Assembly (NCBI GenBank): GCA_964618115.1
Contig: CAZTZI010000206.1
Span: 5,779-69,778, forward strand
Direction of reading: 5' to 3'
DNA length: 64,000 bases
From: an uncultured Acidimicrobiales bacterium
GTDB lineage: Bacteria; Actinomycetota; Acidimicrobiia; Acidimicrobiales; CATQHL01
The position numbers and the translations under genes were made by a program. Position 1 is the stretch's first letter, and the number at the start of each line of letters is the position of its first letter. Below the pieces are notes generated by a model. It ran no database searches and was not told where the DNA came from. It worked only from the letters and a program-made list of their open reading frames with translations. This document shows, one piece after another, positions 840 through 38,111 of the stretch.

Positions 840-930
840 GGGCGCGACACCGTCCTTCCGATCCTCCCGACCGCTGCACCGCCACCGCCGACCTGCGTGA
901 CCGGCTGCGCCACCGGATCCCCCACGACCC

Positions 931-2325: not shown

Positions 2326-2341
2326 CGGCTCGAAGGGATCG

Positions 2342-3184
2342 TCACGGTCCGGGCGCGTCGTCCTCGACGGTGACGGCAAGCGGGCGCGCCGGTGCGCCGG
2401 TGGCCCCGAAGACGTTGAGATGCCCCAGCACGAACAGGAACTCACCGGACCCCGCCGCACTCAGTTCCTCAAGGTCCAGCACCTCGACGATGTTGATGCC
2501 GGCTTCGGTGAGCAGGATCCGGTGAACGGGCAGCAGGGCGTGACCGGCACCCGGCGCGAGCACTTCGAAGGCGAGCGTGTCGGCGCCGACCAGGGACACA
2601 CCCCGCTCCGCCAGCCACCGGGCCCCGGCGGTCCCGACGCCGGGGACACCGCTGCGGGCGCCGCGGAAGCGCTCGGGATCATCGATGTGGCACCCCCACC
2701 CGGTACGGACGAGGACGGCGTCGTTCGCCCCGACGGGCGTGGCTTGGGCGACAGCGGTGGCCTCGAGGTCCTCGACGGTGATCTCGTAGCCGGGCGCGCA
2801 GCAATCCACGCCGAGTTGCGCAGGCACGTCCATAAGCACACCGCGCCCCACGAAGGGCGGCAGCTCGTGGATTCCCAGCGACTCGAAGCGCCCTCCGGAC
2901 TGAGCCACCCGTGCGTCGACGCCTCCGTGGAGCCGGCCGTCCTGGCTGACGTGGGCCAATGCGTCCACGTGCGTGCCGACGTGGCATCCCATCGTGATCA
3001 GATCGGAGGCTGCCGAACCGCCGTCGGCGCGCACCATGTCGCCGTGGCGACGGTCGAGGCAGTGGCGGAACGCCGGATGGTTGGGCGACTGCGCCATGCC
3101 ATTGCGCAGCGGTCGCCCCAAATCGAACACCCGTGCGCCGCCGATGAGTTCCAGCAGGCGCCTCTGCGCAGCCGCGGCGGTCAC
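2342..3184 (-). CDS. Cyclase family metal-dependent hydrolase (kynurenine formamidase-like)
   Basis: HVGTHVDALAH motif, LVRTGW, GADT, HRILL and IVEVLDL. Confidence 0.9.
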   Translation of the reverse strand: MTAAAAQRRLLELIGGARVFDLGRPLRNGMAQSPNHPAFRHCLDRRHGDMVRADGGSAASDLITMGCHVGTHVDALAHVSQDGRLHGGVDARVAQSGGRFESLGIHELPPFVGRGVLMDVPAQLGVDCCAPGYEITVEDLEATAVAQATPVGANDAVLVRTGWGCHIDDPERFRGARSGVPGVGTAGARWLAERGVSLVGADTLAFEVLAPGAGHALLPVHRILLTEAGINIVEVLDLEELSAAGSGEFLFVLGHLNVFGATGAPARPLAVTVEDDAPGP

Positions 3185-4404: not shown

Positions 4405-4422
4405 GGCCCGATTGTAAACGCT

Positions 4423-4439
4423 GTTTCGTTCAGCGGAAC
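4423..4439. promoter_or_regulatory. Putative IclR operator (GTTTCGTTCAGCGGAAC)
   Basis: One mismatch to the GTTCC-N7-GGAAC palindrome, just upstream of the CoA-transferase operon. Confidence 0.7.
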
Positions 4440-4504
4440 AGATAGGACCATCAGCTTGCTTCTGCCGCGGTTTCGGTGCCGAGGTGAGCCATGATTGGCC
4501 TAGT

Positions 4505-4521
4505 GTTCCCCTGAGCGGAAC
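4505..4521. promoter_or_regulatory. Putative IclR operator (GTTCCCCTGAGCGGAAC), likely autoregulatory
   Basis: Palindrome immediately upstream of the IclR gene. Confidence 0.75.
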
Positions 4522-4529
4522 AGCGACAT

Positions 4530-5393
4530 GTGGACGAACGAATGGGAGGCGCGGAGGTGGACACACCGTCGGGGCACCCGGGGGCACCGGCAAGCGATCG
4601 CGCGGACGGCGAGGGCGCCGGGGCGGAGACCTCCTCGGGGCGCGGTGTCGCCTCGGTCGAACGTGCCGGCAACGTGCTGTTCTGTCTCGCACGGGCCGGC
4701 GCGCCCCGGGGGGTGACCGGGATCGCCTCCGAACTGGGCATCTCCAAGGCCGTCGTCCACCGCATCCTCACGTCGCTGCTGCAGCGCGACCTCGTGACGA
4801 TGGACGCCAACACGCGCCGGTACGCCCTCGGTCCCGCCGTGTTGGAACTGGCGGCCGCCTACCGCTCCCAACTCGACATCAGAGTGCTGGCGCTCGAGAC
4901 GATGCGGGATCTGGTGGCGGCGACCGGAGAGACGTCCACCCTCTCGATCCTTCACAACGACCGCCGCGTCTACGTGGACCAGGTCACTCCCAACCGAGAG
5001 GTCAGGATGACCGTCGAGGTGGGCGCCTCCTTCCCGCTCCACGCGGGCGCCTCCTCGAAGGCCTTCCTGGCCTGGTTCCCCGAGGAGAAGCAGCGCGCCT
5101 ACCTGGCCTCACCGCTGGAGCCTCTGACCGAGTCCACGATCACCGATGCCACCGAGTTGCGCCGGGAACTCTCGCGCATCCGCCAGCAGGGTTTCGCCGT
5201 GTCGCTCGGGGAGCGCCAAGCGGGGGCGGGCTCGGTGGCCGCGCCGCTGCTGGACGAGCAACTCTCGCCGGTGGCAGTCCTCAGCGTTTGCGGACCGCTC
5301 CAGCGGTTCACCGCGGAGATCGCCGGCGCAGCGGCCGAGTTGGTGCGGGCGACCAGGGCCTTGTCCCGCAAGCTCGGCGCCCCCCTGGAGTGA
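4530..5393 (+). CDS. IclR family transcriptional regulator
   Basis: SVERAGNVL...GVTGIASELGISKAVVHRILTSL HTH, YALGP, TGETSTL, PLHAGASSKAFLA and SVAAPL effector domain. True start may be 4542 or 4557. Confidence 0.93.
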   Translation: MDERMGGAEVDTPSGHPGAPASDRADGEGAGAETSSGRGVASVERAGNVLFCLARAGAPRGVTGIASELGISKAVVHRILTSLLQRDLVTMDANTRRYALGPAVLELAAAYRSQLDIRVLALETMRDLVAATGETSTLSILHNDRRVYVDQVTPNREVRMTVEVGASFPLHAGASSKAFLAWFPEEKQRAYLASPLEPLTESTITDATELRRELSRIRQQGFAVSLGERQAGAGSVAAPLLDEQLSPVAVLSVCGPLQRFTAEIAGAAAELVRATRALSRKLGAPLE

Positions 5394-6976
5394 GCGTGCC
5401 GGGAGTCACCGTCGCCGCAGTCCAGTTCGCGACGTCCACCGACGTCGAAGAGAACCTGGCCACCTGCCTGCGGATGATCGATTCCGCCGCGGCGACGGGC
5501 GCGCAACTCATCGTCCTCCCGGAGTTCTCCAACCATCCCTCCGTGTATGACAGTGCCGAGCACTGCCATCGCGTGGCCCTGGACCTCGACGGGCACTTCG
5601 TGGATTCCTGCGCCCGGCGCGCTCGCCGCCATGAGGCACACGTCGTCCTCACCGTGACCGTGAGGCGTCCGGACGGTGTGACGATCACCAACCTGCTGCT
5701 CGATCCCCGCGGGCGGCTCGCCGCCCAGGCCGACAAGCAGACGCTGATGGGCAACGAGCGGGACTACCTGCGACCGGGGTCGCGGGTGGCGCCCGTCATC
5801 GAGACCACGTTCGGCCCGGTCGGCATGTACTCCTGCATGGACGGCGTGACCTGCGAGGTGCCGCGGGCGCTCGCCGTGGGGGGCGCGCGCCTGCTGACCA
5901 ACAGCCTCAACTCCTTCGCCCTCGACGAGGCCGCGCTCCACGTCCCGGTGAGGGCCGTGGAGAACCAGGTATTCGTCGTGTCCGCCAACAAGGTGGGACC
6001 GCTCGTGCCCGCCCACCGCCTGGAGGCCTTCGTCGCCGCCCTCGACATCCCGGCGGCCGCGCTCGACGGGGCCGGGGAGAGCCAGATCATCGCGCCGGAC
6101 GGCTCCGTGCTGGCGAAGGCGCCCCGGCTCGGTGAGCACGTGGTGAGCGCCACCGTGGATCTCACAGAGGTGGACCGCGCCCGAGCCGCCGACCCGCTGC
6201 CGGCACGGCGCCCGCAGCTCTACGCGGCCCTCGCCGGATCGCAAACCCTGACCCCCCCTTCGAACAGCGCCGAGACCCTGCTCGCCGGCGCCGCGGCGGC
6301 GCCGAGCGGGGTGGCCGAGTTGCTGGAGGCCGGGGCGAGACTGCTGGTCCTGCCCGAACTCTGCGAGCCGCCCGCGCCGATCCCGCACGGGGTGACGGTC
6401 GTCGGTACCCGGCGGGACGGCAGCCGGCACCTCGGCGTGGCGACCAACGCCTCCGGCGTCCTGCTCGAGCAGCCGCAGCTCCATCACACGGCCAGATTGC
6501 CCTGGGCCGCGGGCGACGGCGACGGGCTGGCAACGGTGGACCTTCCCTGGGGACGCCTCGCCGTGGCGATCGGCGACGACATCGCGCTCCCGGAGGTGGC
6601 CCGCCTGGCCGCGCTGGCGGGAGTGAACGTGCTGGCGGTGTGCCACCGGCCTGAGCGACCCACCGACGTGGACCTCCTGCTCCTGGAGCGGGCGGCCGAG
6701 AACCGTCTCTGCATCGTGGCGGCGTCCCCGGTCGGCCCCACCTCCGGCTGCGCGCTGATCAGCCCGCCGGCCTACTCGCTGTTCGCGACGGATCGCACGC
6801 ATCCCTTCGACGGCACGATCAACATGCCGGACCTCCGGCGCATCGGATCCGGGCAGGATCACCTCCTCGGCACGATCCACCCTCGCCGGGCCGCCCAGCG
6901 GGAGGTGTCGCTGCAGACCGATCTCGTTGCCGGTCGCGCTCGCGCGGCTGCCGTCCGGCTGGTGGGGTCGGGCTGA
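5390..6976 (+). CDS. Carbon-nitrogen hydrolase (nitrilase superfamily) with a second degenerate domain
   Basis: VAAVQF, LIVLPEF (Glu), ADKQ (Lys), YSCMD (Cys) and RAVENQVFV; the C-terminal half repeats LLVLPEL and ERAAENRL. GTG start overlaps the IclR stop. Confidence 0.85.
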   Translation: MSVPGVTVAAVQFATSTDVEENLATCLRMIDSAAATGAQLIVLPEFSNHPSVYDSAEHCHRVALDLDGHFVDSCARRARRHEAHVVLTVTVRRPDGVTITNLLLDPRGRLAAQADKQTLMGNERDYLRPGSRVAPVIETTFGPVGMYSCMDGVTCEVPRALAVGGARLLTNSLNSFALDEAALHVPVRAVENQVFVVSANKVGPLVPAHRLEAFVAALDIPAAALDGAGESQIIAPDGSVLAKAPRLGEHVVSATVDLTEVDRARAADPLPARRPQLYAALAGSQTLTPPSNSAETLLAGAAAAPSGVAELLEAGARLLVLPELCEPPAPIPHGVTVVGTRRDGSRHLGVATNASGVLLEQPQLHHTARLPWAAGDGDGLATVDLPWGRLAVAIGDDIALPEVARLAALAGVNVLAVCHRPERPTDVDLLLLERAAENRLCIVAASPVGPTSGCALISPPAYSLFATDRTHPFDGTINMPDLRRIGSGQDHLLGTIHPRRAAQREVSLQTDLVAGRARAAAVRLVGSG

Positions 6977-7034
6977 ACGCGGGGCACTCCGTCACGCGCT
7001 GACCGCGACCCTGCGGCAGCGCGGCATGCGGCGG

Positions 7035-7841
7035 TCAGCGCGGCGCTTCGGGCAGACCCACCCGGGCCCGTTCCAGGATCCGCCGCGCCAGACGAACGGT
7101 GGCGTTGTCGACGAACGCTCCGTCGACGACCGCCGGCTCCCCGTCAGCGGCGGCGTGGGCGGCCACGAGGCGCCGCGCCCGGCGGATTTCCTCCTCGCCG
7201 GGGGTGAACACCCTGTTGACAGTCGCCACTTGGTGGGGATGAAGGACGCTGCGACCGCCGAAGCCCTGCCGGTACAACTGCCGGCTCGTGTGCTCCAGCG
7301 CCTCGTCGTCGCCCAGATCGGTGGGGGCCGGGCCGACGGGGGGCTCCAGTCCCGCCGCGGCCGACGCCACCACCACGTCGCTGCGGATCGCCCACAGCTC
7401 GCGCCCGTCGGCCGACGTGACCACGCCCAACTCGGCGCAGAGGTCCGCCTCACCGAGGGCGAGGCGCACGACCTGCGGGTGGGCGGCGATCCGGTCGAGA
7501 GACCGAACGCCCGCGGCCGTCTCGATCAGGGCCTGCACCGGAACGGCGGCGGCGGCGCAGGCCTCCTCGGTGGCCTTCGGCACCACAGCACCGGCCGCCC
7601 GTGACCGCGCGACCATCGCCAGGTCCTCGGCCAGCAGTTCCGCGTGGTTGTTGACCCTGATCCAGACCGCCAACGGTGGCGGCTCGTGGAGCCACGCCGC
7701 AACGGCGGCGCGGGCCTCCCGCTTGACATCGGCCCCGACGGCGTCCTCGAGGTCGACGATCACGGCATCGGCCCCGCTGGCGGCGGCCTTGGCGAACCGG
7801 TCGGGCCGGTGGCCGGGAACGTACAGGTAACTTCGGTTCAC
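7035..7841 (-). CDS. CitE-like CoA ester lyase (HpcH/HpaI aldolase/citrate lyase beta family)
   Basis: RSYLYVPGHRPDRFAKA, DAVIVDLEDAV, WIRVN, VPK, LIETAAG, GEADL and LHPHQV. Confidence 0.9.
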   Translation of the reverse strand: MNRSYLYVPGHRPDRFAKAAASGADAVIVDLEDAVGADVKREARAAVAAWLHEPPPLAVWIRVNNHAELLAEDLAMVARSRAAGAVVPKATEEACAAAAVPVQALIETAAGVRSLDRIAAHPQVVRLALGEADLCAELGVVTSADGRELWAIRSDVVVASAAAGLEPPVGPAPTDLGDDEALEHTSRQLYRQGFGGRSVLHPHQVATVNRVFTPGEEEIRRARRLVAAHAAADGEPAVVDGAFVDNATVRLARRILERARVGLPEAPR

Positions 7842-7921
7842 AGGTACTCCCGGAGGCGACGGTTGCACGTGCCGTAGCGTTGACACTCTGCGGCGTGCAT
7901 TCTAGCGTTCAGTGAAACATC

Positions 7922-7938
7922 GTTCCGCTGAGCGGAAC
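7922..7938. promoter_or_regulatory. Putative IclR operator (GTTCCGCTGAGCGGAAC), with a weaker site at 7902-7918
   Basis: Perfect 8-bp inverted repeat around one base, in the divergent citE / RCCR-like intergenic region. Confidence 0.8.
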
Positions 7939-7973
7939 CAGAGCCGCGGCCGGGACGACCACGGGAAGTGTGC

Positions 7974-8798
7974 ATGCGGGAGACACTCGAGGGCGTCGAA
8001 GAGATCTTCGACCGCCGGGCGAAACGTGACACGACCGCCGTCGTCGAGCACCTGTGGGCCACGACCGAGGAGTTGATGTCCAAGCTCCGAGATCGCTTCG
8101 AACTCGCCCGCGACCCGAGCACCACCGATCTGGAGTCCTACCGCGGCGCGGCCGAATACCCCGCGGGGCGCCTCGCCGCCTACGCCGGCCCGGAGATCGA
8201 CTGGCTCGTGCACAGCTGGATGGGGAACCCACCTCTGGGGTTCACCAACATGCACGTCACGGTCTGGTTGGGCCCCCACATCGAGGTGCCCCACTTCGGG
8301 TTCGCCTGCGGGACCCTGCCCGACGTGTGGTTCTACGTCGACTACAACTCCCGCTCGGACCTCATGCTCGACACCGAGGCCCTCGAGCGTTACTACCAGC
8401 CGCTCAACGAGCAGTTCCTGGCCCTCAGAGCCGACCCCGGCCTCGTGCCCTTCACCTCCAAGGCCCTCTACGTCCGCCAGGCGCTGTCTCATGTGGCGCT
8501 CTGCTTCACCACCGATGCCACACCGGAGCGGCTGGCACAGATCCGCGAACTGGCCCACGACCGCCTGGACCGGTGGCTCGGCCATGTGGACGAGGCGGAG
8601 CCGACCCGACCGGACCGCCGCGCCCTGCTGGCGGCGCACGACCTCACCCGGCGCCGCAACATCGCCGAACGCGATCCCGCGAACGTCATGGGCGTACGGT
8701 TCTTCGGCGAGGAGATGACCGACCGGCTCGTCCGGGCGCTCTGGGGAGGCGACCGCCTCCTGGGAAGCCCCGGCGCGGACACGACGAAGGCGGAGTGA
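7974..8798 (+). CDS. RCCR-like / ferredoxin-dependent bilin reductase fold protein (copy 1)
   Basis: Ordered motifs EIDWLVHSW, VPHFGF, YVDYNSRSDLMLDTEALERYY, PFTSKALYVRQALS, DRWL and ERDPAN...FFG match my recollection of plant and cyanobacterial RCCR sequences. Confidence 0.75.
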   Translation: MRETLEGVEEIFDRRAKRDTTAVVEHLWATTEELMSKLRDRFELARDPSTTDLESYRGAAEYPAGRLAAYAGPEIDWLVHSWMGNPPLGFTNMHVTVWLGPHIEVPHFGFACGTLPDVWFYVDYNSRSDLMLDTEALERYYQPLNEQFLALRADPGLVPFTSKALYVRQALSHVALCFTTDATPERLAQIRELAHDRLDRWLGHVDEAEPTRPDRRALLAAHDLTRRRNIAERDPANVMGVRFFGEEMTDRLVRALWGGDRLLGSPGADTTKAE

Positions 8799-8799
8799 C

Positions 8800-9969
8800 G
8801 TGCTCATCAAGAACCAGTGGTACGCCATCGAGTTCGGCCCCGTCGTGGCCGATCGGCCCGTGGCGGTGCCGGTCCACGGCCACGATCTCGTGCTGTACCG
8901 CACCAGCGACGGGACCGTGCACGCGCAGGCCGACCTGTGCGTGCACCGCGGTGGCGCGCTGTCCGGCGGGCGGGTTGTGGATGACTGCCTGCAGTGCCCC
9001 TACCACGGCTGGCGGTACGACACCGACGGCCGCTGCATCAGGATCCCGGCCAACCGCCCGGAGGTGCCGATCCCTCGCAAGGCCCGCATCGACACCTATC
9101 CGTGCGTCGAGCGCCACGGCTTCGTGTGGGTGTTCCTCGGTGACGCCCCCGAGCCGGAACGGCCACCGCTGCCCGTACTCGAGGGCCTCGATGCCCGCAC
9201 GGAGGCGTGGCGGGACGGCAGCCGAGCGGTGCGGGGCACGTTCGAGTGGCAGGCCAACTACGACCGCGTGCTGGAGAACGCCTTCGACATCGCCCACACC
9301 CCGTTCGTGCACGCCGGATCGTTCGGGAACCCCGACAAGCCCGAGATCCAGGACTACGAGGTGGAGCAGAACGTCGAGAACGGTCACCTCACCTCGGTGA
9401 CGGCCACCGTGGATCTGGACCCGCCCCCGCCGCGGGGCCGGTGGGCGAAGGTCTACCGGACCGAGGGGGATCGGCCCCCGGTGCGCACCACCACCGGCTT
9501 CTACCCGCCGAACGTGTCGCTGCTCATCGTCCGCCCGCCCCTCGGCGAGATCCGGATCTACACGGCCGCCGTCCCCATCGACGAGCACAGAACGATCTCC
9601 AAGTTCTACATGTTCCGCGACTTCTTCACGGGGCGCTGGGCCGACCGCGACTCCATAGCCCGAACTCTGAAGATCTTCCTCCAGGACCAGATCACCGTCG
9701 AGCGCCAGCGCCCGGAACTGCTGCCCTTCGATCTGGCCGCCGAACTCCACGTCAAGTCCGACTCGATCCAGCTGGCCTACCGCAGGTGGCGTCAGGACTG
9801 CCTGGACCGGGGTCTCGGCCTGGCGACACCCAGCGATGCCGAGACCGCCCGCCGGGTGGCGGTGATCCCGTCCCCCGCGCGCGCCGCGGATGCCGAGATG
9901 GCCGGGGCCTGGGTCTTCGGTGCGGTACCCGCCGGCGGCGAGGGGACCTCGACCGGGGAGACGACGTGA
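8800..9969 (+). CDS. Rieske non-heme iron oxygenase (PaO/VanA/KshA class)
   Basis: Rieske ligands CVHRG and CPYHGW; mononuclear iron motif ENAFDIAHTPFVH; distal IFLQD. Confidence 0.92.
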   Translation: MLIKNQWYAIEFGPVVADRPVAVPVHGHDLVLYRTSDGTVHAQADLCVHRGGALSGGRVVDDCLQCPYHGWRYDTDGRCIRIPANRPEVPIPRKARIDTYPCVERHGFVWVFLGDAPEPERPPLPVLEGLDARTEAWRDGSRAVRGTFEWQANYDRVLENAFDIAHTPFVHAGSFGNPDKPEIQDYEVEQNVENGHLTSVTATVDLDPPPPRGRWAKVYRTEGDRPPVRTTTGFYPPNVSLLIVRPPLGEIRIYTAAVPIDEHRTISKFYMFRDFFTGRWADRDSIARTLKIFLQDQITVERQRPELLPFDLAAELHVKSDSIQLAYRRWRQDCLDRGLGLATPSDAETARRVAVIPSPARAADAEMAGAWVFGAVPAGGEGTSTGETT

Positions 9970-19031: not shown

Positions 19032-20995
19032 GTCACCGGGGTCGCCGGAGGGCCGGCGAGATACACCGACCGCACCAGGTCCCCCTGCGCCTGCAGGTCG
19101 GCCGGCGTGCCTTCCCGGCGGATCTCACCCCTCTCCATCACGTAGACGTAGTCGGCCACCTCGCAGGCGAGGTCCACGGACTGCTCGACCAGCAGGACCG
19201 AGGTGCCACGGGCCGCGATCCCGCGCAGCGCGGGCAGCAACTCGTCCACCAGCGCCGGTGCCAGCCCCAGCGAGAACTCGTCGATCAGCAGCAGCCGCGG
19301 TGAGGTGATGAACGCCTTGGCCAGAGCGAGCATCTGCTTCTCGCCGCCGGACAGGGTCGCGGCGCTCTGGGAGCGCCGCTCCGCCAGGCGCGGGAACTGC
19401 TCGAGGGCCGCGGCGATCCCCGGGCCGGCCGCCGAGCGCGGCAGGCTGTGGGCGAAGAGCCGGAGGTTCTCCGCGACGCTGAGTTCTGCAGCCACGGCGT
19501 CGCCGCCGACGATCTGGTGCAGACCCATCCCGACGCGCCACGTGGGCGGCGTCCGGGTGATGTCGAGCCCGCGATAGACGATCCGGCCCGCGCAGAGGGG
19601 CTCGAGGCCCGAGATCGCCCGCAGCGTGCTGGTCTTTCCGGCACCGTTGGTGCCCAGCAGGGCGACCACCCTGCCCTCGGGCACCACGAGGCCGGCCTCG
19701 AATACCACCTGGACCCCCTCGTAGGCCACCCCGACACCGTCCAGCCGCAGCAGCGGCGTCCCGGGGCCCTGCTCCACCCGCCCGGGCACGGTGGTGCGCC
19801 AGGCGCGCCGCCGGTGGACCGCGACCTCCTCGGCGGGGCATCGGCGGGCGAGCAGGTATCCCACCCCGATGGGGGCCAGGGCGGTGACGGCGATCCGCAA
19901 CTGGTCGTGCCGGCCTGCCAGCGGACCCGCCAGCAGGCCCACGGCCGCCGCCGCGCCGGCCGCGAAGCCCGCCACCTGGCGAGCCGCCACGACCCGCCGC
20001 GTGGCGGGACGGAAGCCCGCCCAGGTCGCCGCATCCAGTCCGACGGCCGCCAGCACCAGCGCGCCGGCGGCCAGGATCCACGAGGTGATCAGCCCGATGT
20101 AGGTGAAGGAGAGGGCGCCGAGCAGGGCCATCCCGCCGCCGAGCATCAGCAGGTGGCCGCTGATGGCGGCGCGGCCGGCTCCGCTCCGCCGTCCCAGGTG
20201 GTGGAACCACCGCCCGAGGATCACGGTCACGGCGGCGCCACCGGCGGTCGCCGCCAACACGCCGGCCGCGCCCTGCGGGGTGCGCTGCCACTCGCCGGCG
20301 AGCAGCGCATGCCCCGATGAGGCGGTGCCGGCGAACAGCGCGCCGAACCCGAAGGCGGCGGCGGCACCGCGCCTCGACCACGGGGCGCCGGCCACGGCGA
20401 TCCCGTCGGCACCGGGATCCGCCCACGGCAGCGGACGCAGGAGTGTGAGGACGCCGCCGGCCGCCGCGGCCACGCCGGCGCCCCGGAGCACGGCGACGAT
20501 CCCGACCGGCTGGACCATGGACGCCAGGAAGACGCCGAGGACGCCAAGGGTCAACGCTGTCCAGTACCAGCTGAACAGCACGAAACGCGCTTCGTTGCCC
20601 TCGGCGTCCCGGGCCGGCCAGGCGAGACGGGGCGTGTTGAGGACTTCGGCACTCTCGGCGATCAGCAGGCGCTGCAGGGCGATGGACGGACCGAACCCGG
20701 CGGCCGCCACCGCCAGACCGGCCGTCCCGGCGGTGCCGCCCGGATCGCTCGCCGCCAGCCACATGCCGGCGCCGGCACCGACGGCGGCCGTGCCGATCAG
20801 GATCTGCTCGGGGATCCGGCCCGCCGCCCGGGTGGCGGCCAGCGCGCCCGCCAGGGCCACGAGTGCCATCACGGGAAGCGCCCGGGCGGCGAGCGCCTCG
20901 CCGGTGCCCGCGGGCAGCATCAGTCGAGCGGCGCTCGCGCCGGCGGCCCCGGCGATCACGCCCGGGCCGGCCAGCCGGGCCAGGATGGCCCGCAC
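19028..20995 (-). CDS. LivF-like ABC ATPase fused to an N-terminal multi-pass (MFS-like) membrane domain
   Basis: About 400 aa of hydrophobic helices, then GTNGAGKT, LSGGEKQML, LLIDEFSLGLAP and LLVEQ. Start at GTG 20995. Confidence 0.85.
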   Translation of the reverse strand: MRAILARLAGPGVIAGAAGASAARLMLPAGTGEALAARALPVMALVALAGALAATRAAGRIPEQILIGTAAVGAGAGMWLAASDPGGTAGTAGLAVAAAGFGPSIALQRLLIAESAEVLNTPRLAWPARDAEGNEARFVLFSWYWTALTLGVLGVFLASMVQPVGIVAVLRGAGVAAAAGGVLTLLRPLPWADPGADGIAVAGAPWSRRGAAAAFGFGALFAGTASSGHALLAGEWQRTPQGAAGVLAATAGGAAVTVILGRWFHHLGRRSGAGRAAISGHLLMLGGGMALLGALSFTYIGLITSWILAAGALVLAAVGLDAATWAGFRPATRRVVAARQVAGFAAGAAAAVGLLAGPLAGRHDQLRIAVTALAPIGVGYLLARRCPAEEVAVHRRRAWRTTVPGRVEQGPGTPLLRLDGVGVAYEGVQVVFEAGLVVPEGRVVALLGTNGAGKTSTLRAISGLEPLCAGRIVYRGLDITRTPPTWRVGMGLHQIVGGDAVAAELSVAENLRLFAHSLPRSAAGPGIAAALEQFPRLAERRSQSAATLSGGEKQMLALAKAFITSPRLLLIDEFSLGLAPALVDELLPALRGIAARGTSVLLVEQSVDLACEVADYVYVMERGEIRREGTPADLQAQGDLVRSVYLAGPPATPVT

Positions 20996-20996
20996 G

Positions 20997-22769
20997 TCAG
21001 CCCCCGAAGGGGATCGTGTCACTCCGGATGACCATGCACGCACAGGACTCGTCGTAGGAGAACACGCGGTAGCCGGCGCTCCCGGTGTAGTCGCCCTCCC
21101 GGAATGCCACCGAGTAGACGCTGGCGGGCTCGAACCGGTCGCCGACGGCCCACATCGCCGCGCCGATGCCCTCGGGGCTCAGTGAGTCGGCGTGATCGCC
21201 GGCGAGTTGCAGGAGCCTGACCGCGTCGCAGTACAGGAGCGCGCTGCGGGAGTTGGCGCGGCTCTCGAAGTCGGCCCCGGCGTCGGCGGCGATGCCGAGG
21301 CACAGGGCCTCGGCGGCGTTGGCCGGTGCGGGATACTGGTCCTCGTGAACGTCCCAGCCGGGCAGGACGGAGATCCCGACTGAACCCCGCATCAGGTCGG
21401 GGTAGTTGCGGATGTTGAATTCGGGACTGTCGTAGCTGGTCACGGCGTAGGCGGGCGAGAAATTCTGGGTGGCGCCGATGTCCAGCATCCACGAGGCCAG
21501 GCGGGATCCCCCCACGGCGATGACCTTGTCCACACCGGCACTCTTGAAGTCGAGGATCGCCTGCTGCATGCCCGCCTCGAGGCTGGTGCCGTCGACCGGG
21601 TCCGCCCAGTTGACCGACGCAACCTCCACGCCGGCAGCGGCGAGGCGAGGCTGCAGCACCTCCTCGAAGATCCGGCGGTTCATGTCGTTCTCGATGCCGA
21701 CGACGCCGACCGTGGCGCCGTCGAACCACCCGGCGGACTCCAGCGCCCCGGCCAGGCCGCTGAGCAACTGGTCGTAGCTCGGGAGCAGCGGCGACCACAG
21801 GTACGGGGCGAGGTCCGCGTAGCCGGAGCGGTCGATCGGGAAGAGGGTCACATCCAGCATCAGCGTGCCGGCTGCGGCGTAGCAGGGCCGGGCGTTCTCC
21901 TGGAACTGGCCCGTGAGGACGACGACGTCGGCACCGTCGTCCTGGGTGATGGCGTTGCAGAGTTGCTCCTCGGAGATGGGAGAGTCGGTGATGGCGTTGA
22001 AGACCCGCACGACCGGTCGGATCGGCCGGCCGGCCACGCCTCCGGTGTCGTTGGCGCGAGCCACGACCGCTTCGATCACAGCCTCCAGATCGCCCTGGTC
22101 GGGAACCTCCCAGCCCAGCGCCTGAGCGACGACGCTCACGTCGGTGACGATGAACGACACCACCAGCGGCTCGGCACTCATGTCGGCGGGGCCGCGAGAG
22201 GCCTCGAGCGGCTGGGGCGCCGCGGGCGGCTGGGGCGGGGGCGCCGCAGGTCGCTCCGGCTCGTCGCCGGCCGCGGGCGCCGCGGGGGGATCCGCGGGCT
22301 CGGGCGCCGCCGGGGCCTCCGGCGCCGGAGCAGGCTCATCGGGCGCCGGCGCAGGCGTCTCCGCTGCGGCGGCCGCCTGCTGCTGGGCTTCCTCGGCTTC
22401 GGCGCGCGCCTGCTCGGACGCGCTCTGGGCGGCGGCGGCCTGCGTGCGCGCCTCCTCCGCCTCGGCCTGAGCCTCCGCGAGTGCCGCCTCGGCCTCGGCG
22501 ACGGCCTCCTGGTCGCCCTCGGCTGCGGCCTGGGCAAGTTCGGCTGCCGCCTGAGCCTCCTCCTCGGCGGCGAGCGCGGCCTGCTCCCGGGCCTCGGCCG
22601 CCGCCGCCTCGGCCTCCGCCGCCTGCGCCTCGGCCTCGGCCTCGGCCGCCCGCGCTTCGCTCAGCGCCGCGGCGGCACCGTCCGCCGCACCGTCGTCGCC
22701 TGCCGCACATGCAGCCGCCAGCAGCGCCAACGCGCTCAGGGCGGCCGTCGCAAGAATGCGGATCCTCAT
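20997..22769 (-). CDS. ABC substrate-binding lipoprotein (type 1 PBP) with Ala/Glu coiled-coil stalk
   Basis: Lipobox LAAAC, Ala/Glu-rich helix, Pro-rich linker, then ANDTGGVAGRPI and FKSAGVDKVI motifs. Confidence 0.85.
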   Translation of the reverse strand: MRIRILATAALSALALLAAACAAGDDGAADGAAAALSEARAAEAEAEAQAAEAEAAAAEAREQAALAAEEEAQAAAELAQAAAEGDQEAVAEAEAALAEAQAEAEEARTQAAAAQSASEQARAEAEEAQQQAAAAAETPAPAPDEPAPAPEAPAAPEPADPPAAPAAGDEPERPAAPPPQPPAAPQPLEASRGPADMSAEPLVVSFIVTDVSVVAQALGWEVPDQGDLEAVIEAVVARANDTGGVAGRPIRPVVRVFNAITDSPISEEQLCNAITQDDGADVVVLTGQFQENARPCYAAAGTLMLDVTLFPIDRSGYADLAPYLWSPLLPSYDQLLSGLAGALESAGWFDGATVGVVGIENDMNRRIFEEVLQPRLAAAGVEVASVNWADPVDGTSLEAGMQQAILDFKSAGVDKVIAVGGSRLASWMLDIGATQNFSPAYAVTSYDSPEFNIRNYPDLMRGSVGISVLPGWDVHEDQYPAPANAAEALCLGIAADAGADFESRANSRSALLYCDAVRLLQLAGDHADSLSPEGIGAAMWAVGDRFEPASVYSVAFREGDYTGSAGYRVFSYDESCACMVIRSDTIPFGG

Positions 22770-22770
22770 G

Positions 22771-23022
22771 TCAACTCCCCTCCACCAGCGAGTTCTCGCG
22801 GAACGCCGCCCGCACCGCTGCGTCGTAGGCGGCTCTGCGGGCGGCGAGTATGCGTACCGCCAGCCGGACGGCCAGTGCCAGCAGCACGACCACGATCACC
22901 ACGTGCGCCCACCGCGGCAGGGCGAGCCAGCCGCCCCCGATCCTGTCGAGAGCCTCGTCGTTCATGCCGGCGACGTACAACATGGCGCCGACCAGGCCCC
23001 AGAACCACCGCCGGCGGATCAC
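22771..23022 (-). CDS. Small hypothetical membrane protein (83 aa)
   Basis: Two hydrophobic segments; start overlaps the upstream stop and stop abuts the SBP start. Confidence 0.6.
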   Translation of the reverse strand: MIRRRWFWGLVGAMLYVAGMNDEALDRIGGGWLALPRWAHVVIVVVLLALAVRLAVRILAARRAAYDAAVRAAFRENSLVEGS

Positions 23023-24350
23023 GTGGCGGCGCCGAACTGCGCGCCCTCCGCACCGTGCACCAGGTACTCGGCGGCCTCGAGGCGCCCTCGCTCAGGCGGG
23101 AAGCCCTGCACCAAGGCCATGGCGAGGTCTCGCAGGCCCCGGGAGATCGGCGAACCGAAGCCGGTGTTCCCCGTACCGCACGCCTTGAGGGCCGTCACGG
23201 CCACGTCGAAGCAGTTCTCGGCGATCTCACCCTTGGCGATGCGCCAGTGCGCCACCTCCTCGTCCTTGGACATCCGGGGCGGGTCGCAGGTCTCCAGTTG
23301 CAGCTGGCGCCGTGCCCAACCCAGCGCCGTCTGCAGCGAGGCCTGCATCCTCCCGATGAGTTGCTTGTGCAACTCGCTGCCGCCGATGGGCTCGTCGGTG
23401 CCGTGGTAGGTGGTCGTGCGCAGATGGTTCAGGGCAAACTCCGTCACGGCGTGCGCCGCACCGAGGTAGACCGACGACAGCGCCACCTGGTTGCCGACGA
23501 AGCTGCCCCGGCTCACCCGGGTCATCTTCACGAAGGCGCCCGGTAGGGCCAGCGCGCTGGCATCGGGCACGAAGACGTCCTCGAGGACGATCCCGTGCGT
23601 GGCCGATGCCCGCATCCCCAGGGCGTCCCAGCGGGTCCGGTCAGACACGCCGGTGCTGTCGCGGGGGATCAGGAAGACGGCCAGGTGCTCGGCCGTGGCG
23701 CCGCCGGGGAGCCTGGCCGTGACGAGGTAGTCGTCGGCGACCCCGGTGGCGCAGCCGAACGACTTGACCCCGTTGACGATCCAGCCGCCGTCGGCGGGCG
23801 AGGCCTCGGTGGCGATGGCGATCGCGGCGTTCTTGACGCGCACCGACTCGCTCGCGAAGTTGGCGACCCAGCGCCCCTCCGAACCCATCCGCCGCAGGAG
23901 CTTCTCGCCGAACGCCCGGACCACCGGCACCTCCTTGGGGGAGAACAGCCCGGCGTCGGCCGCGGCCAGCGGGAGGAGGCCGCGCGACGTGCCGCTGCAC
24001 TGGAAGAAATAGGCGATGGCCGTCGAGGCGCAGGCGGTCGCCATGGCGAAGGTGGCGGCCGCCAGATCGCGCAGACCGCCTCCGAGACCTCCGTATTCGA
24101 CCGGGACGTTCAGGCCCAACAGCCCGGCTTCGGACAGCGTCCTCACATGCTCGACGGGGAACTCGCCCGTGCGGTCCGCCTCGGTGGCACGGGCCGCCAG
24201 AGCACCCAGCACCCCCTCGACCCGAGCGGCCCGGGCGCGCTCGCCGGCGGTCATGTCGTCGACGAGGATCTCCCCGGTGAGACCGCCCGTCGCGGCGGTG
24301 GGGGCCCCGCTCCGCCCGGCCGGCGCCACGATCGCCCGGGCCGTCCCCAT
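23019..24350 (-). CDS. Acyl-CoA dehydrogenase family flavoprotein (possibly a DszC/SfnB-like monooxygenase)
   Basis: ADRTGEFP, VPVEYGGLGG, WIVNGVKSFGCAT, WDALGMRASATH and SVYLGAA. Confidence 0.85.
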   Translation of the reverse strand: MGTARAIVAPAGRSGAPTAATGGLTGEILVDDMTAGERARAARVEGVLGALAARATEADRTGEFPVEHVRTLSEAGLLGLNVPVEYGGLGGGLRDLAAATFAMATACASTAIAYFFQCSGTSRGLLPLAAADAGLFSPKEVPVVRAFGEKLLRRMGSEGRWVANFASESVRVKNAAIAIATEASPADGGWIVNGVKSFGCATGVADDYLVTARLPGGATAEHLAVFLIPRDSTGVSDRTRWDALGMRASATHGIVLEDVFVPDASALALPGAFVKMTRVSRGSFVGNQVALSSVYLGAAHAVTEFALNHLRTTTYHGTDEPIGGSELHKQLIGRMQASLQTALGWARRQLQLETCDPPRMSKDEEVAHWRIAKGEIAENCFDVAVTALKACGTGNTGFGSPISRGLRDLAMALVQGFPPERGRLEAAEYLVHGAEGAQFGAAT

Positions 24351-24372
24351 CGAGATCGCGCCCCCGGAGCGC

Positions 24373-24915
24373 TCAGCCCGTTGCCATGTCCGAGGGCGGC
24401 TCCCCGGCGCCGTCGCTGCCGGCATCCGCCGGGGCTTCTTCGGCGGGAGGCTCCTCCTCGGTGGTGCCGCCCGGGCCGGCGAACGTGATCTCGACACCGG
24501 CGTAGTTCGCGTTGGGCCCGAAGCCGTCGCCGGCGACGACGAAGCACGGGTTCTCGTGATCGCAGCGTCCGGGGATCACCATCACGGGATACTCCAGGCC
24601 GGCCGTGCCGTCGTCGGCGGAGGTGGCCGTGTGCTGGCCGTAGTTGCTCAACTCGCAGTCCGCGGGTCCCACCGCCGGGAAGTTGAAGCACGTCACCACC
24701 GTGATGGTCTTGCCGGGGAGGAAGCTGGACAGGTTGACCGTGATCGTCTCGCCGTCGGTGATGCCGCTGTCCTTGGAGAGCGTCATGGTCTCGCCGTTGT
24801 GGCCCAGACCATGGTCCGCGGATGTGTGCGACGCCGTCAGCGCGGTGACCGCCAGGATGACGGCGCCCGCCGCAGCGAGCCGGCGGACGGGGGTGGGGAT
24901 GATCGGTTTCGACAC
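24373..24915 (-). CDS. Secreted neocarzinostatin apoprotein-like protein
   Basis: Signal peptide; GITDGETITV...FLPG...TC...GPADC...ADDGTA...RCDHENPC...ITF with four Cys in the chromoprotein pattern. Confidence 0.7.
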   Translation of the reverse strand: MSKPIIPTPVRRLAAAGAVILAVTALTASHTSADHGLGHNGETMTLSKDSGITDGETITVNLSSFLPGKTITVVTCFNFPAVGPADCELSNYGQHTATSADDGTAGLEYPVMVIPGRCDHENPCFVVAGDGFGPNANYAGVEITFAGPGGTTEEEPPAEEAPADAGSDGAGEPPSDMATG

Positions 24916-25007
24916 GTTTCGTCCTTTCGGGGGACCGACCGCCTTACCGAGGGCCGTTCGCCCTTTCCGAGGTCGGCGTTGTGAGTCGTACAGTAGGCCG
25001 TTCGGAT

Positions 25008-25024
25008 GTTCCGATCAATGGAAC
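25008..25024. promoter_or_regulatory. Putative IclR operator (GTTCCGATCAATGGAAC), with a half-site at 25028
   Basis: Palindrome about 90 bp upstream of the neocarzinostatin-like/ABC operon. Confidence 0.75.
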
Positions 25025-25125
25025 GTTGTTCCACTTCAGGGCTGATCTGGAACTGTCGGCCGGCTTCACCGCCTGCGTCGGCGAGCGGGGGACCTGCGAC
25101 GTCCGGCCGGACCGGCGGTGCCCCG

Positions 25126-25782
25126 TCAGCGGGCGAGGTAGGCCAGCACCTCCGCCTCGTCCACGACGTCGGCGTACTTGGCGTCGAGATCGAAGAGGTT
25201 CGCCTCGTGGACGGCCTCGCTGCGATCACCCACCGCTTGGCGGACCACGATGGGGACGAACCCGTACTGGCAGGCGTCCAGCGCGGTCGCCCGCACGCAG
25301 CCGCTCGTGGAAACACCCGTCACGATCACCGTGTCGACGCCCAGTGACGTGAGCGTGGACGCCAGCGACGTGCCGAAGAAGGCGCTGGGGTACTGCTTGG
25401 TGACGACGATGTCGCCGGGCTCCGGCTTCAGCGACGGGGCCAGTTCCGCCAGGGGGTTGCCCCGGTCGAAGCAGGCCAGCGCCGCCACCTTCCGGTAGAA
25501 GACGCCCCCGTCGACCCCGCCGGGGTGGAACTCCACCCGGGTGAGGATCACCGGTATGCCGGCCGACCGGGCGGCGTCGAGGACGCGCTCGCAGGACGCC
25601 AGCGTGTCCTCCACCCCCGCGTACAGCGGTGAGCCCTCCTCGAGGTAGGCGAGGGCGAAGTCGATGATCACCAGGGCCGGGCGCTCCCCGAACCCCAGCC
25701 GGCCACGGAAGCCCGCCTTCGTGTAGTCCTCCTCGAGCGCCGTTCCGGTCATCTCGCCGGCATCGGTGTCTCGGTCATCCAT
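25126..25782 (-). CDS. Isochorismatase-family cysteine hydrolase (maleamate amidohydrolase/N-carbamoylsarcosine amidase-like)
   Basis: GFGERPALVIIDF, KQYPSAFFGT, GVSTSGCVRATALDA and NLFDLDAKYADV. Confidence 0.9.
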   Translation of the reverse strand: MDDRDTDAGEMTGTALEEDYTKAGFRGRLGFGERPALVIIDFALAYLEEGSPLYAGVEDTLASCERVLDAARSAGIPVILTRVEFHPGGVDGGVFYRKVAALACFDRGNPLAELAPSLKPEPGDIVVTKQYPSAFFGTSLASTLTSLGVDTVIVTGVSTSGCVRATALDACQYGFVPIVVRQAVGDRSEAVHEANLFDLDAKYADVVDEAEVLAYLAR

Positions 25783-25793
25783 CTCCGGTTCCT

Positions 25794-25835
25794 CCTGTCT
25801 CGGTCGTCCTGTCTCGGTCGTCCTGTCCCGGTCGT
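25794..25835. repeat. 14-bp tandem repeat (CCTGTCTCGGTCGT) x3
   Basis: Two exact copies and one single-mismatch copy upstream of the isochorismatase RBS. Confidence 0.75.
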
Positions 25836-25909
25836 CCGTATCTCGTCCTCGACCGCCCGATCCTCCTCCGAGTTCGGGTTCCGGCCGCGGAGCGCCGGCC
25901 GGGCGGTGC

Positions 25910-27193
25910 TCACGAAGCGATCGTCGCTCGCCGGCGGGCTTCCCGGCCGGCCCCGGCGTCGCCGCCCGCCGGAGCACCGACCGCGGCGCTGCCGCGTGCC
26001 TCGCCGAGCAGATCGTCCATCGCCCAGCGGGCCCTCAGCATGGAGGCGTCCAGCAGGTACTCGCGGGCGGCGCCGGGGTCGGCGGCGGTCTCGGACATCT
26101 CCGCCAGCGCCCGCCGCCGCGCCGCGCCGTCCACCGCCGCAAGGCTCCGTGCGTTGCGGTGGGTGTGTCGCTGGACGTAGTCGAGGGCCAGCCGCCGGCG
26201 GCAGTCGGCCGCGGCACTCAGCCGGTCGGCGCCCAGCGTGCCGGCGCACACCGAGCCGACGGCGTGGCCGAACAGGAACGCGTCGTGGATCCCGCCGTTC
26301 ATGCCCATGCCGCCGAGGGGATTGTTGATGTGGGCGGCGTCACCGGCGAGCAGCACCCGCCCGGCGCGGAACGTCCCGGCGACGCGCTGGTGCACCCGGT
26401 AGATCGTGCGGTGCGCCACCTCGTAGCCGCCGGGCAGCGCCGCGATCCCGCCCAAGCGGCGCTGCACGCTCCCCTCGCTCAGCGCCCCGGCGTCGCTCTC
26501 GCCGGGCCCCACCGGAAACAGCGCCCGCCACAGGTCCGCGGTCCGCAGCAGGACCAGCCACTCGTCGGGATCGCTGATGTAGTTCACGTATGACAGGTCG
26601 TCCAGATCGTCCGCGAAGTCGTGCGGCGTCGAGACCACGAGATACCGGTCCTCGTAGGTCATGCCATCGAAGGTCAGCCCCAGCGACTTCCGCACCGCGC
26701 TGGAGGCCCCGTCGGCGGCGAGCACCCAGTCGGCGCCGTGCACCGAGCCGTCCGCCAGCGTGACCGTGGCGTGATCGCCCCTGTCGGACGCGCCGGTGAC
26801 GCGGTGCGCGAAACGGACCGTCACCGCCGGCTCGTCCCGGAGCCGCCGGAGGAGGATCTCGCAGAGCTTGAACTGCTCGCTCTGCAAGCGGTAGGGGTGG
26901 GCGGTGACGTCTGCGATGGCACCCAGGTCGAATCTCGCCACCACGCCGGCCCGGCGGTCCCGGTAGGCGAAGTGGCGGGCGACGAGCCCCCGGCCGATCA
27001 GTTCCTCGGTGACATCGAGTTCGGCCAGCAGGTCAAGCGTGGCGGGATGAAACGTCGAGGCCCGCAACTCCCTCCGCAGCGCCGGCTCGGCCTCCATGAG
27101 CGTGACCGCCACGCCCCGCCGGGCGAGCACGGCGGCGGCGACACACCCGACCGGCCCGGCGCCGACGACGATCACCCGCGGCGCGCCGGACAT
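25910..27193 (-). CDS. FAD-dependent monooxygenase (MhpA/PheA-like)
   Basis: VVGAGPVG, AADGASSAVRK, GRVLLAGDAAH and GGMGMNGGIHDA. Start at ATG 27193. Confidence 0.9.
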   Translation of the reverse strand: MSGAPRVIVVGAGPVGCVAAAVLARRGVAVTLMEAEPALRRELRASTFHPATLDLLAELDVTEELIGRGLVARHFAYRDRRAGVVARFDLGAIADVTAHPYRLQSEQFKLCEILLRRLRDEPAVTVRFAHRVTGASDRGDHATVTLADGSVHGADWVLAADGASSAVRKSLGLTFDGMTYEDRYLVVSTPHDFADDLDDLSYVNYISDPDEWLVLLRTADLWRALFPVGPGESDAGALSEGSVQRRLGGIAALPGGYEVAHRTIYRVHQRVAGTFRAGRVLLAGDAAHINNPLGGMGMNGGIHDAFLFGHAVGSVCAGTLGADRLSAAADCRRRLALDYVQRHTHRNARSLAAVDGAARRRALAEMSETAADPGAAREYLLDASMLRARWAMDDLLGEARGSAAVGAPAGGDAGAGREARRRATIAS

Positions 27194-27194
27194 C

Positions 27195-27941
27195 TCAGAA
27201 TTCGCGGAGCATCGTGCCGAAGCCGACGAACCGGTCGTCGATTCCCAGGGTGCGCAGGGCGTGCCAGATGCAGATGGCGTTGATGGCCAGAACGGGCTTG
27301 TCCAGCCATCTCTCGGCCTGGTCGGCGACCTCGACCATCGACAGGTTGGTGCCGCACTGCACGATCGCCTCGATGTCATCACCGTCGAGGCGCCGAAGTT
27401 CGGAGACGAGCCGGTCCGGGGGAACATCGGCGATCGATGTCGCCGTCGCGCAGCGCAGGCCGTGGACCCGCTTCACGTCGAAACCGCACTCGGTGAAGTA
27501 GTTGTAGACCTGCTCGTCGCCGACGCTCTGATAGGGCGTGATACAGGCGATGGACGACACGCCGAGCCGCGCCAAGGCCGCGTTGCAGGCATCGGCGCCC
27601 GACGTGATCCCGAGGTCGCCGGAGATCTGGCGCACACGTGCCTCGAAGGCGGCATTGCCCTCCTTGCCTCCCCAGAAGGTCTCCGCCGACATACCCATGA
27701 GGATGTAGTCGGGCTCGCAGGTCATGACGTCGCGTACAGAGCCGGGGATGGTGTCGCGGATCTTGTCCAGGAAGTAGAGGAAGGCGTCGTCGGAACTGAG
27801 GTCGGGCGCCTCGACGAAGAACCGGGCGGCGTGGAAGGTCACACCGGGCAGCGGCAGGGCGTTGCAGTCGTGCTCCACAACCGTGTTGGTCGAGGGGACG
27901 ATCACGCCGATCTTGGCGCGGTAGCCGACGATGTCCGGCAT
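27195..27941 (-). CDS. Asp/Glu racemase superfamily protein (maleate isomerase/arylmalonate decarboxylase-like)
   Basis: KIGVIVPSTNTVVE, ITPY, GTNL, KPVLAIN and WHALR. Confidence 0.85.
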   Translation of the reverse strand: MPDIVGYRAKIGVIVPSTNTVVEHDCNALPLPGVTFHAARFFVEAPDLSSDDAFLYFLDKIRDTIPGSVRDVMTCEPDYILMGMSAETFWGGKEGNAAFEARVRQISGDLGITSGADACNAALARLGVSSIACITPYQSVGDEQVYNYFTECGFDVKRVHGLRCATATSIADVPPDRLVSELRRLDGDDIEAIVQCGTNLSMVEVADQAERWLDKPVLAINAICIWHALRTLGIDDRFVGFGTMLREF

Positions 27942-27970
27942 TCGCCTCTCCTGTCACTCAGTGGAACGGC

Positions 27971-27987
27971 GTTCCGATCAACGGAAC
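27971..27987. promoter_or_regulatory. Putative IclR operator (GTTCCGATCAACGGAAC), with a half-site at 27951-27967
   Basis: Palindrome 30 bp upstream of the isomerase start; differs from the 25008 site at one base. Confidence 0.78.
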
Positions 27988-29945: not shown

Positions 29946-30003
29946 CCGGTGCGCGGGGTACTGTACCCGACGTCCTGCACCCGGACTGTTGCGAGGGGGA
30001 CTG

Positions 30004-37894: not shown

Positions 37895-38111
37895 GCGCAT
37901 AGGGGCGGGCGCAAAGACACACGGCGAACGAGGAGAGCGCGGCGAGCCGTCGCAAATTGCTCCTCGTTGCGGAACCCGGCAGCCCGCGGCCCGTTGCCCG
38001 GCCGGAATCGGGCGACTACCCTGCCCGCGTCATCTTCGGACCTCCGGCCACCGGAGCCTCGACCGGGCTCGAAGGCCAGCTGTTCAGGGCAGAACCACTG
38101 GGGAGTGAACC

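Follow-up and report, generated by a model that had tools for sequence, protein, structure and literature searches.

A candidate IclR-family operator with a third half-site marks a conserved gene block in uncultured Acidimicrobiia

The window analyzed here is a 64-kb stretch of DNA, about 70% G+C, from an uncultured Acidimicrobiales bacterium (C206:5779-69778 of an assembly of 3,302,157 bases in 230 contigs, rated 91% complete). It carries a gene for an IclR-family transcription regulator and six copies of a 17-bp palindrome, each of which is a candidate operator for this regulator. Sponge metagenome runs are the main source of reads matching the DNA of window positions 4300-9300.

The gene block and its palindromes

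Genes were called by third-position G+C and named by Pfam and NCBIfam, and every NCBIfam match in the block stayed below the cut-off of its model. On the resulting map, eight putative transcription units can be drawn. The first (3..4404, - strand) runs from a CoA-transferase III gene (3181-4404) through genes for a cyclase-type hydrolase (2342-3184), an MmgE/PrpD protein (931-2379) and hydantoinase B (3-839), and it extends about 3 kb beyond the left window edge to a hydantoinase A gene on the same contig. The second unit (4557..6976, +) opens with the IclR gene, which overlaps by 4 bp the gene for a carbon-nitrogen hydrolase of 528 aa (5390-6976). The order of these two genes is kept in relatives, and the hydrolase gene is predicted, from strand and overlap, to be co-transcribed with the regulator gene. 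The third unit (7035..7886, -) encodes an HpcH/HpaI (CitE-like) acyl-CoA lyase, whose best NCBIfam match, RipC/Ccl, reaches 155 bits, under the 375-bit cut-off.

The fourth unit (7974..11662, +) comprises the RCCR-like gene 8 (7974-8798), a gene for a Rieske/VanA_C oxygenase (8800-9969), gene 10 (9966-10715) and gene 11 (10712-11662). Next come a fifth unit (11835..15064, -), with gene 15 for a calycin-type barrel (14606-15064), a DUF3891 gene (13717-14535), gene 13 (12628-13626) and gene 12 (11835-12497) in an order that is kept in relatives, and a sixth (15127..16229, +), with genes for a Dabb alpha/beta-barrel protein (15127-15423) and a short-chain dehydrogenase (15438-16229). The seventh unit (16254..24915, -) encodes a neocarzinostatin-like small protein (24373-24915), an acyl-CoA-dehydrogenase-fold protein (23019-24350), the products of the unassigned genes 21 and 20, and an ABC importer of the branched-chain type that is made of two fused permease/ATPase proteins (19028-20995 and 16254-19031). 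Finally, the eighth unit (25126..27941, -) holds genes for an Amdase/maleate-isomerase-family protein (27195-27941), an FAD monooxygenase (25910-27193) and an isochorismatase-family amidase (25126-25782).

An earlier note on this DNA had described six copies of GTTCC-N7-GGAAC, all intergenic and upstream of operon starts, as the mark of a regulon of roughly 28 kb. Five copies are indeed exact (4505, 7922, 15095, 25008 and 27971), but the copy at 4423 reads GTTTC-N7-GGAAC and thus has one mismatch. Their placement is borne out on the map built from third-position G+C and Pfam: all six are intergenic, and each is placed where one or two of the eight units begin. The operators do span these units, but the first unit passes the left edge of the window and the block is about 31 kb long. 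On sequence grounds, the palindromes probably delimit 26 window genes plus the hydantoinase A gene, or 27 genes altogether.

The first two candidate operators lie between the IclR gene and its divergent CoA-transferase neighbor. O1 (4415..4439, +) reads TAAAC-N3-GTTTC-N7-GGAAC, and its palindrome (4423-4439) is centered 27 bp upstream of position 4404, where the CoA-transferase gene (-) begins. O2 (4505..4521, +) is an exact palindrome with no third box, located 36 bp before 4557, the likely start of the IclR gene. O3 (7914..7938, +), which includes the exact copy at 7922, reads GAAAC-N3-GTTCCGCTGAGCGGAAC and forms a perfect 8-1-8 palindrome; its center (7930) is equidistant from the two divergent start codons at 7886 and 7974, exactly 44 bp from each. 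O4 (15087..15111, +) reads GAAAC-N3-GTTCC-N7-GGAAC and occupies the gap between the starts of gene 15 (15064, -) and the Dabb gene (15127). O5 (25008..25032, -) reads GGAAC-N3-GTTCC-N7-GGAAC on the - strand, with its main palindrome at 25008-25024. O6 (27963..27987, +) has the same composition, and its palindrome (27971-27987) is centered 38 bp upstream of the first gene of the eighth unit, which starts at 27941 (-).

A weaker copy of the palindrome had been reported exactly 20 bp away from four of these sites (7902, 15075, 25028 and 27951). In each case only the palindrome-proximal half is present, 3 bp away, reading GAAAC (7902), GAAAC (15075), GTTCC (25028) and GGAAC (27951), and TAAAC at 4415 is a fifth case. 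What survives of this observation is a conserved third half-site at a 3-bp gap, whereas the second full palindrome is absent. A matrix trained on the six window sites gives 7902 a score of 14.4 and places the other three below the listing threshold of 14, and an independent matrix scores all four below 10. At 7902 and 15075, the distal half coincides with a -10-like hexamer.

The three-box pattern GRAAC-N3-GTTYC-N7-GRAAC, with at most one mismatch, occurs at five window sites (4415, 7914, 15087, 25008 on the - strand, and 27963) versus 0.00 expected, and the site at 4505 is the one without the third box. In aligned orthologous intergenic regions, one extra half-site, G[GA]AAC, is kept exactly 3 bp from the palindrome, and no conservation is seen in what would be the distal half of a second palindrome. 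Similarly, among 99 exact sites in relatives, nRAAC is found at a 3-bp gap in 74, on one side only. Other gaps have 0-2 occurrences each, except for a gap of 8 bp with 23, which may represent an alternative arrangement of the boxes.

Enrichment and conservation of the motif

For the exact motif 0.07 copies are expected in the window, which has five, a number that none of 100 shuffled sequences reached. When two mismatches are allowed, the count falls to chance level (36 against 31.9 expected), and therefore only the strong copies are given weight. A motif scan of the whole genome, which the earlier note had proposed, speaks for its claim in that the motif is not common: the 3.3 Mb hold nine exact copies, five of which lie in this block inside one 23.6-kb stretch. 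The same half-sites at spacers N0-N14 other than N7 yield 1-10 copies each across the genome. Furthermore, the published consensus GTTYCRYW3RYGRAAC, at up to two mismatches, finds exactly the six sites in the window, where 0.12 matches are expected. The independent matrix, built from 79 unique sites from other genomes with no window site included, scores the six at 23.2-29.3. These values place them among the seven best in the whole genome, with O2 highest at 29.3, and all seven window matches that score at least 10 with this matrix are intergenic.

Orthologues of the IclR protein (E <= 1e-40, 46-64% identity) are present in 13 of 200 other sampled genomes of the same order. A site with at most one mismatch lies upstream of the IclR gene at 10 of these 13 loci; of the remaining ones, one has sites only past the 3' end of the gene and two have no site. 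In 40-kb views of these genomes the gene block recurs, and its sites occupy corresponding intergenic regions. In three genomes that carry the orthologue, a stretch of about 11-22 kb next to the IclR gene contains 4 of 6 exact copies (G078), 3 of 7 (G100) and 3 of 6 (G112). The same-genus genomes G137 and G187, which do not carry it, have six and eight exact copies, and these are dispersed.

Searching 185,579 species genomes with a profile provided a wider set of 80 loci (1.44 Mb, 50-85% IclR identity). Nearly all come from metagenome-assembled genomes of Acidimicrobiales or Acidimicrobiia, with a few from other actinobacteria and some from oddly labelled bins. The N7 spacer accounts for 99 exact and 140 one-mismatch copies in this set; each of the spacers N3-N12 other than N7 gives 0-3 exact and 33-56 one-mismatch copies. 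At 61 of 78 loci, the 350 bp upstream of the IclR gene include a site.

The motif also keeps its place before orthologous operons in a scan of orthologous loci, a check that the earlier note had proposed. At the O3 position, 39 of 40 divergent intergenic regions between the HpcH and RCCR-like genes carry a site, exact in 37, and upstream of gene 15 (the O4 position) a site is present in 26 of 26. All 55 unique intergenic regions between the CoA-transferase and IclR genes have a site scoring at least 9, with two or more in 33, and the CoA-transferase-proximal one is regularly the GTTTC variant, as at 4423. None of the 169 sites in relatives that score at least 16 lies inside a homologue gene. 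In addition, a site precedes a CoA-transferase homologue in G067, G179 and G128, and this gene is followed by homologues of all three genes of the eighth unit in G067, by those of the Amdase and FAD-monooxygenase genes in G179, and by none within the available stretch of G128.

The regulator and its probable mode of action

The IclR-family gene (4557..5393, +) encodes 278 aa when read from the GTG at 4557, which is preceded by GGGAGG, and the longest open reading frame begins at 4530. Pfam recognizes HTH_IclR (7.4e-10, residues 42-92) and IclR_C (2.1e-42, residues 110-275), and profile comparison with solved structures gives full-length matches (best E 1e-47), with 5tjj and 1mkm as the best relatives. 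Orthologues are mostly 253-274 aa long, and the region of the recognition helix is invariant among them. No NCBIfam equivalog cut-off is reached by the protein: the scores are 166.5 of 350 for BhcR, 129.9 of 284.75 for pcaR_pcaU, 110.5 of 275 for KdgR, 109.6 of 380 for IclR and 103.6 of 406 for AllR. Besides this gene, the assembly has a single other IclR_C gene, on contig C201.

Given this evidence, we hold it very probable that the six palindromes are operators of the IclR protein encoded at 4557-5393. Control of the block by this protein, as the earlier note had proposed, gains support from the match to a known operator class and from the way in which the motif follows its orthologues through the 80 loci. 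The autoregulation proposed along with it is likewise supported at this level, both by O2 before the IclR gene and by the sites in all 55 CoA-transferase/IclR intergenic regions. Each operator would be a 17-bp inverted repeat of the GTT-11-AAC class, extended by a third box in five of six cases. Because of this third half-site, it is probable that IclR binds the palindrome as a dimer and the three-box site, through its extra box, as a dimer of dimers. The operators would overlap the promoters of the eight units, including the regulator's own unit, or follow them closely on the downstream side, and the most likely mode is repression by occlusion together with autorepression. A pathway intermediate that binds the C-terminal domain would then relieve repression. 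Members of the IclR family act as dimers or tetramers, can repress by blocking RNA polymerase, and autoregulate (10.1101/2023.07.27.550818).

Several observations weigh against this assignment. No RNA runs are listed that contain the DNA of window positions 4300-9300, and the operons were drawn only by strand and by intergenic distances of at most 130 bp. A scan for E. coli-type promoters in the five operator intergenic regions returned 0 promoters and 0 terminators. The promoter-like elements considered here come instead from a looser actinobacterial-type pattern that we defined ourselves (TTG[AC][CT]N, 16-19 nt, TANNNT), and the -10-like hexamers at 4505 and 27971 were read by eye only. Members of the IclR family can be activators, and the O5 palindrome overlaps a -35-like hexamer. 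Among the relatives, 17 of 78 loci have no site with at most one mismatch in the 350 bp upstream of the IclR gene. The 80 loci were gathered via the IclR gene, so that finding regulator and motif together is to some extent a product of the sampling, and relatives are not independent of one another.

A further such point is C14:2836, which scores 23.4 with the independent matrix and is the sole comparable match outside the window, the next in the genome being C201:10041 at 18.6 and one on C107 at 16.3. It lies about 355 bp upstream of a gene for an uncharacterised secreted protein of 826 aa. The site is left unexplained because this protein has no homologue in the window or the 80 loci. At C14:2836-2870 (L001), the strong site overlaps a weaker palindrome 18 bp away, of the TGTGCC-N-GGTACA type.

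The regulon could also be wider than the block. It might include the Dpp/Opp-type ABC importer encoded at 34148-40154, via a weak seventh candidate (37959..37975, +), and perhaps the genes at 28192-33952, via weak or unrecognised sites. The candidate reads GCTCC-N7-GGAAC, with one mismatch, and is intergenic, 137 bp upstream of an SBP_bac_5 binding-protein gene (38112). In some distant relatives (L100, L101, L105, L110, L112, L119, G086 and G142) the IclR gene is near homologues of genes 34-36, and several of these carry sites close by. Also, a homologue of the PrpB-like gene 32 lies within the cluster in L091, L095 and G023. However, 37959 scores 10.8 versus 23-29 for the six operators and is without a third box. 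It is the only intergenic candidate beyond 28 kb that scores at least 10, and the remark in the earlier note that no intergenic copies were noticed there holds for strong sites. We consider the wider regulon unlikely.

Another alternative is that the same IclR is the binder but activates, or has a dual role, at some of the promoters. The family does include such proteins, for example PcaR, PcaU and PobR, and PcaR activates from a site that overlaps the -35 and -10 elements and represses its own gene (10.1101/2023.07.27.550818). The O5 element runs from 25018 to 24990 (-), with a -35-like TTGATC inside the palindrome and a -10-like TACTGT at 24995-24990, and the promoters at O1, O2 and O6 were assigned by eye only. 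Against this, in 34 of 38 unique sequences from between the HpcH and RCCR-like genes an element of the looser pattern precedes the palindrome, its end 13-18 bp away, as compared with 4 of 2000 random 70-mers in the control. This places the boxes from about the transcription start to about +30, a position expected of a repressor. In the window, TTGACA-17-TAGCGT (7880..7908, +) ends 13 bp before the O3 palindrome, and TTGACG-18-TAGCGT (15051..15080, +), whose -35 is not conserved in relatives, ends 14 bp before that of O4. O2 overlaps a -10-like TAGTGT at 4501-4506, also read by eye. Overall, the relative positions of operators and promoters suggest a repressor, and activation at some promoters seems decidedly unlikely.

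Another protein might occupy the motif in place of the window IclR, either the IclR paralogue on C201 or a non-IclR protein. The GTT-11-AAC class is common to many IclR proteins (PMC8222616), and paralogues could therefore cross-recognise the motif. There is, in addition, a site of this motif class at C201:10041, about 4.5 kb from the second IclR gene. At this site (L003:5042) the sequence is GTTCCAAAATACGGAAC, and the flanking genes are a DAO/GCV_T (dimethylglycine-dehydrogenase-like) gene and one for formate-tetrahydrofolate ligase. Nearly identical sites recur in G137, G187 and G078. The C201-type sequence, GTTCCA[AG]AATACGGAAC, is thus present in two genomes, G137 and G187, that have no orthologue of the window IclR (E <= 1e-40), and it is therefore assigned to the paralogue, of which it is probably the operator. 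By contrast, cluster-type sites were found only beside the window-IclR orthologue. Pfam detects a DNA-binding domain in no other gene of the block, although seven genes are without any Pfam family. A different binder is thus highly improbable.

The remaining alternative, that the copies are chance matches or fragments of a dispersed repeat with no regulatory role, can draw on the chance-level count at two mismatches and on the about four exact copies elsewhere in the genome (the background level of other spacers), but the window, independent-matrix, consensus and three-box statistics reject it, the positions are kept at 50-85% IclR identity although the flanking intergenic sequence diverges, and its probability is practically negligible.

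Some further matches in the genome can be recorded. C223:7472 (L002:4973) reads GTATC-N7-GGAAC, with one mismatch, and scores 21.7 with the window-trained matrix and below 13 with the independent one. It is upstream of a Peripla_BP_6 binding-protein gene, beside molybdopterin dehydrogenase and ABC genes. Other matches are on C28, C107 and C61, the one on C61 being inside a gene.

Known IclR systems and a possible pathway

The predicted operators find a ready counterpart among those already described for the family. Suvorova and Gelfand (2021) distinguish two types of IclR-family motifs, and their commonest type-1 subgroup, GTTYCRYW3RYGRAAC, accounts for 1364 sites from 54 orthologous groups. 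In 32 groups of that study there are sites of three boxes that alternate in direction, and in 94 groups tandem sites are spaced 18-22 nt apart (PMC8222616). All six window sites fit the commonest subgroup, sharing its outer bases and spacing and matching its consensus at 15-16 of 17 positions. Five of six have the three-box form, in which the third box gives, with the nearer palindrome half, the pair GRAAC-N3-GTTYC, like the motif of group 2. The published tandem spacing includes the 20-bp distance between centers that the third box implies, although none of the six is a tandem of two full palindromes 18-22 nt apart. Furthermore, five of six operators lie 24-44 bp upstream of start codons, inside the main range given in the same study. 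The operator in the window is an ordinary representative of a class that has been described, and this supports an IclR protein as its binder.

The content of the regulon is less familiar. The published work was based on complete genomes in MicrobesOnline, whereas the orthologous group of the window comes from uncultured Acidimicrobiia. Among the 181 regulogs of that study, PrpD appears in four, COG1878 in two and hydantoinase B (COG0146) in none, so there is no sign in its COG content, the sole basis of this comparison, of a regulon with the present set of genes (PMC8222616).

Among individual systems, PcaU, PobR and PcaR are the most instructive. There, as in the window, an IclR gene (autoregulated, as is predicted here) is divergent from a catabolic operon, and PcaU binding needs an external extra half-site beside the palindrome, an arrangement like that of the window (as cited in PMC8222616). 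These proteins activate or dually regulate beta-ketoadipate genes, whereas the operator positions in the window suggest repression. The pcaR_pcaU model gives the window protein 130 bits, below its 285-bit cut-off, and no beta-ketoadipate pathway genes were recognised in the block. The closest matches to aromatic pathways are weak, below-cut-off PcaD-like ones to two alpha/beta hydrolases just outside it.

The tetrameric repressors TtgV and E. coli IclR, AllR and KdgR share the domain architecture of the window protein, with profile matches to the solved structures at E 1e-33 to 1e-23, and the model of a tetramer that occludes RNA polymerase is borrowed from them. Their operators, by comparison, are A/T-rich and of GGAA-N5-TTCC polarity, unlike those of the window (Table 1 in PMC8222616). 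Their effectors and regulons are also unrelated, and the NCBIfam scores of the window protein are far under their cut-offs. The operator of another family member, BlcR, is composed of two inverted repeats 3 nt apart. Literature searches yielded nothing on a BlcR tetramer and its spacer or on IclR proteins in sponge-symbiont Acidimicrobiia, and among the papers listed for IclR with GTTCC/GGAAC, titles and abstracts were mostly on strain engineering or unrelated subjects. Overall, the regulatory device as predicted from sequence is a textbook one, an autoregulated IclR with the commonest operator class of its family.

The enzymes of the block provide some clues to its role. The best solved relatives of the gene 8 product are plant RCCR (E 4e-9) and bilin reductase (E 4e-4), and gene 10 weakly resembles gene 8 (E 0.003 in a single comparison). 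As in the plant PAO/RCCR step, an RCCR-like gene is paired with a Rieske oxygenase gene, here right after it. Unlike PAO, the window Rieske protein is of the VanA_C type; it is nearest to SxtT-, NdmA- and DdmC-type monooxygenases, and no similarity to PAO was found in Pfam or solved-structure comparisons. Atlas places gene 15 near DUF3598 and CpeS-lyase clusters, and its structure model (pLDDT 69, of moderate confidence) has as nearest folds BFA1/DUF3598, CpeS bilin lyase, Rv0813 and nitrobindin. The gene 11 model is a double beta-barrel with a pLDDT of 57 overall and a poor N-terminal half. For both proteins, the Pfam (E up to 10) and PDB profile searches do not confirm the Atlas lead, and it is the fold search with the gene 15 model alone that does; at the sequence level gene 15 belongs to no recognised family. 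Other enzymes of the block are of lactam/amide hydrolase, isomerase, CoA-transferase and acyl-CoA lyase types.

This gene set fits, without showing, the breakdown of a pyrrole-derived pigment to branched dicarboxylates, and it should be treated as a lead only. In its fullest form, which we regard as possible but doubtful, IclR would gate the uptake and breakdown of a linear-tetrapyrrole-type pigment (a chlorophyll catabolite, a bilin or a heme product). The route would end in substituted maleimide or maleamate and methyl-branched dicarboxyl-CoA intermediates, one of which might be the IclR effector, and the hosts would be a group of Acidimicrobiia that includes sponge symbionts. Searches of the literature for bacterial gene clusters with RCCR and Rieske genes gave plant papers only, and those for a maleimide or bilin imidase gave nothing relevant. 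In the part of one study that bears on the subject, bacterial RCCR-like sequences appear only as an outgroup (PMC10151467).

Whatever the substrate, the operator is useful as a delimiter, in that it offers evidence apart from gene order that 27 genes in eight units would act together. Among them are several without an assigned family and a pair similar to enzymes of plant chlorophyll breakdown and of bilin reduction. The block is conserved in many uncultured Acidimicrobiia, and its definition narrows the search for the substrate. A compound that releases IclR from the 25-bp operator would be the pathway inducer, which makes for a direct assay, and the operator might also serve as a portable sensor part.

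Two neighboring regions are of related interest. At 42656-47556 and 50991-52184 there are a second hydantoinase A/B pair, a second carbon-nitrogen hydrolase and a second CoA-transferase III, all paralogues of regulon genes but without an operator. A homologue of the 50991-52184 gene sits within the cluster in many relatives, and a site precedes it in some of them. Downstream of the motif-defined regulon and outside it, a copper amine oxidase gene (47544-49475) is found among cupin, SnoaL-like and methyltransferase genes.

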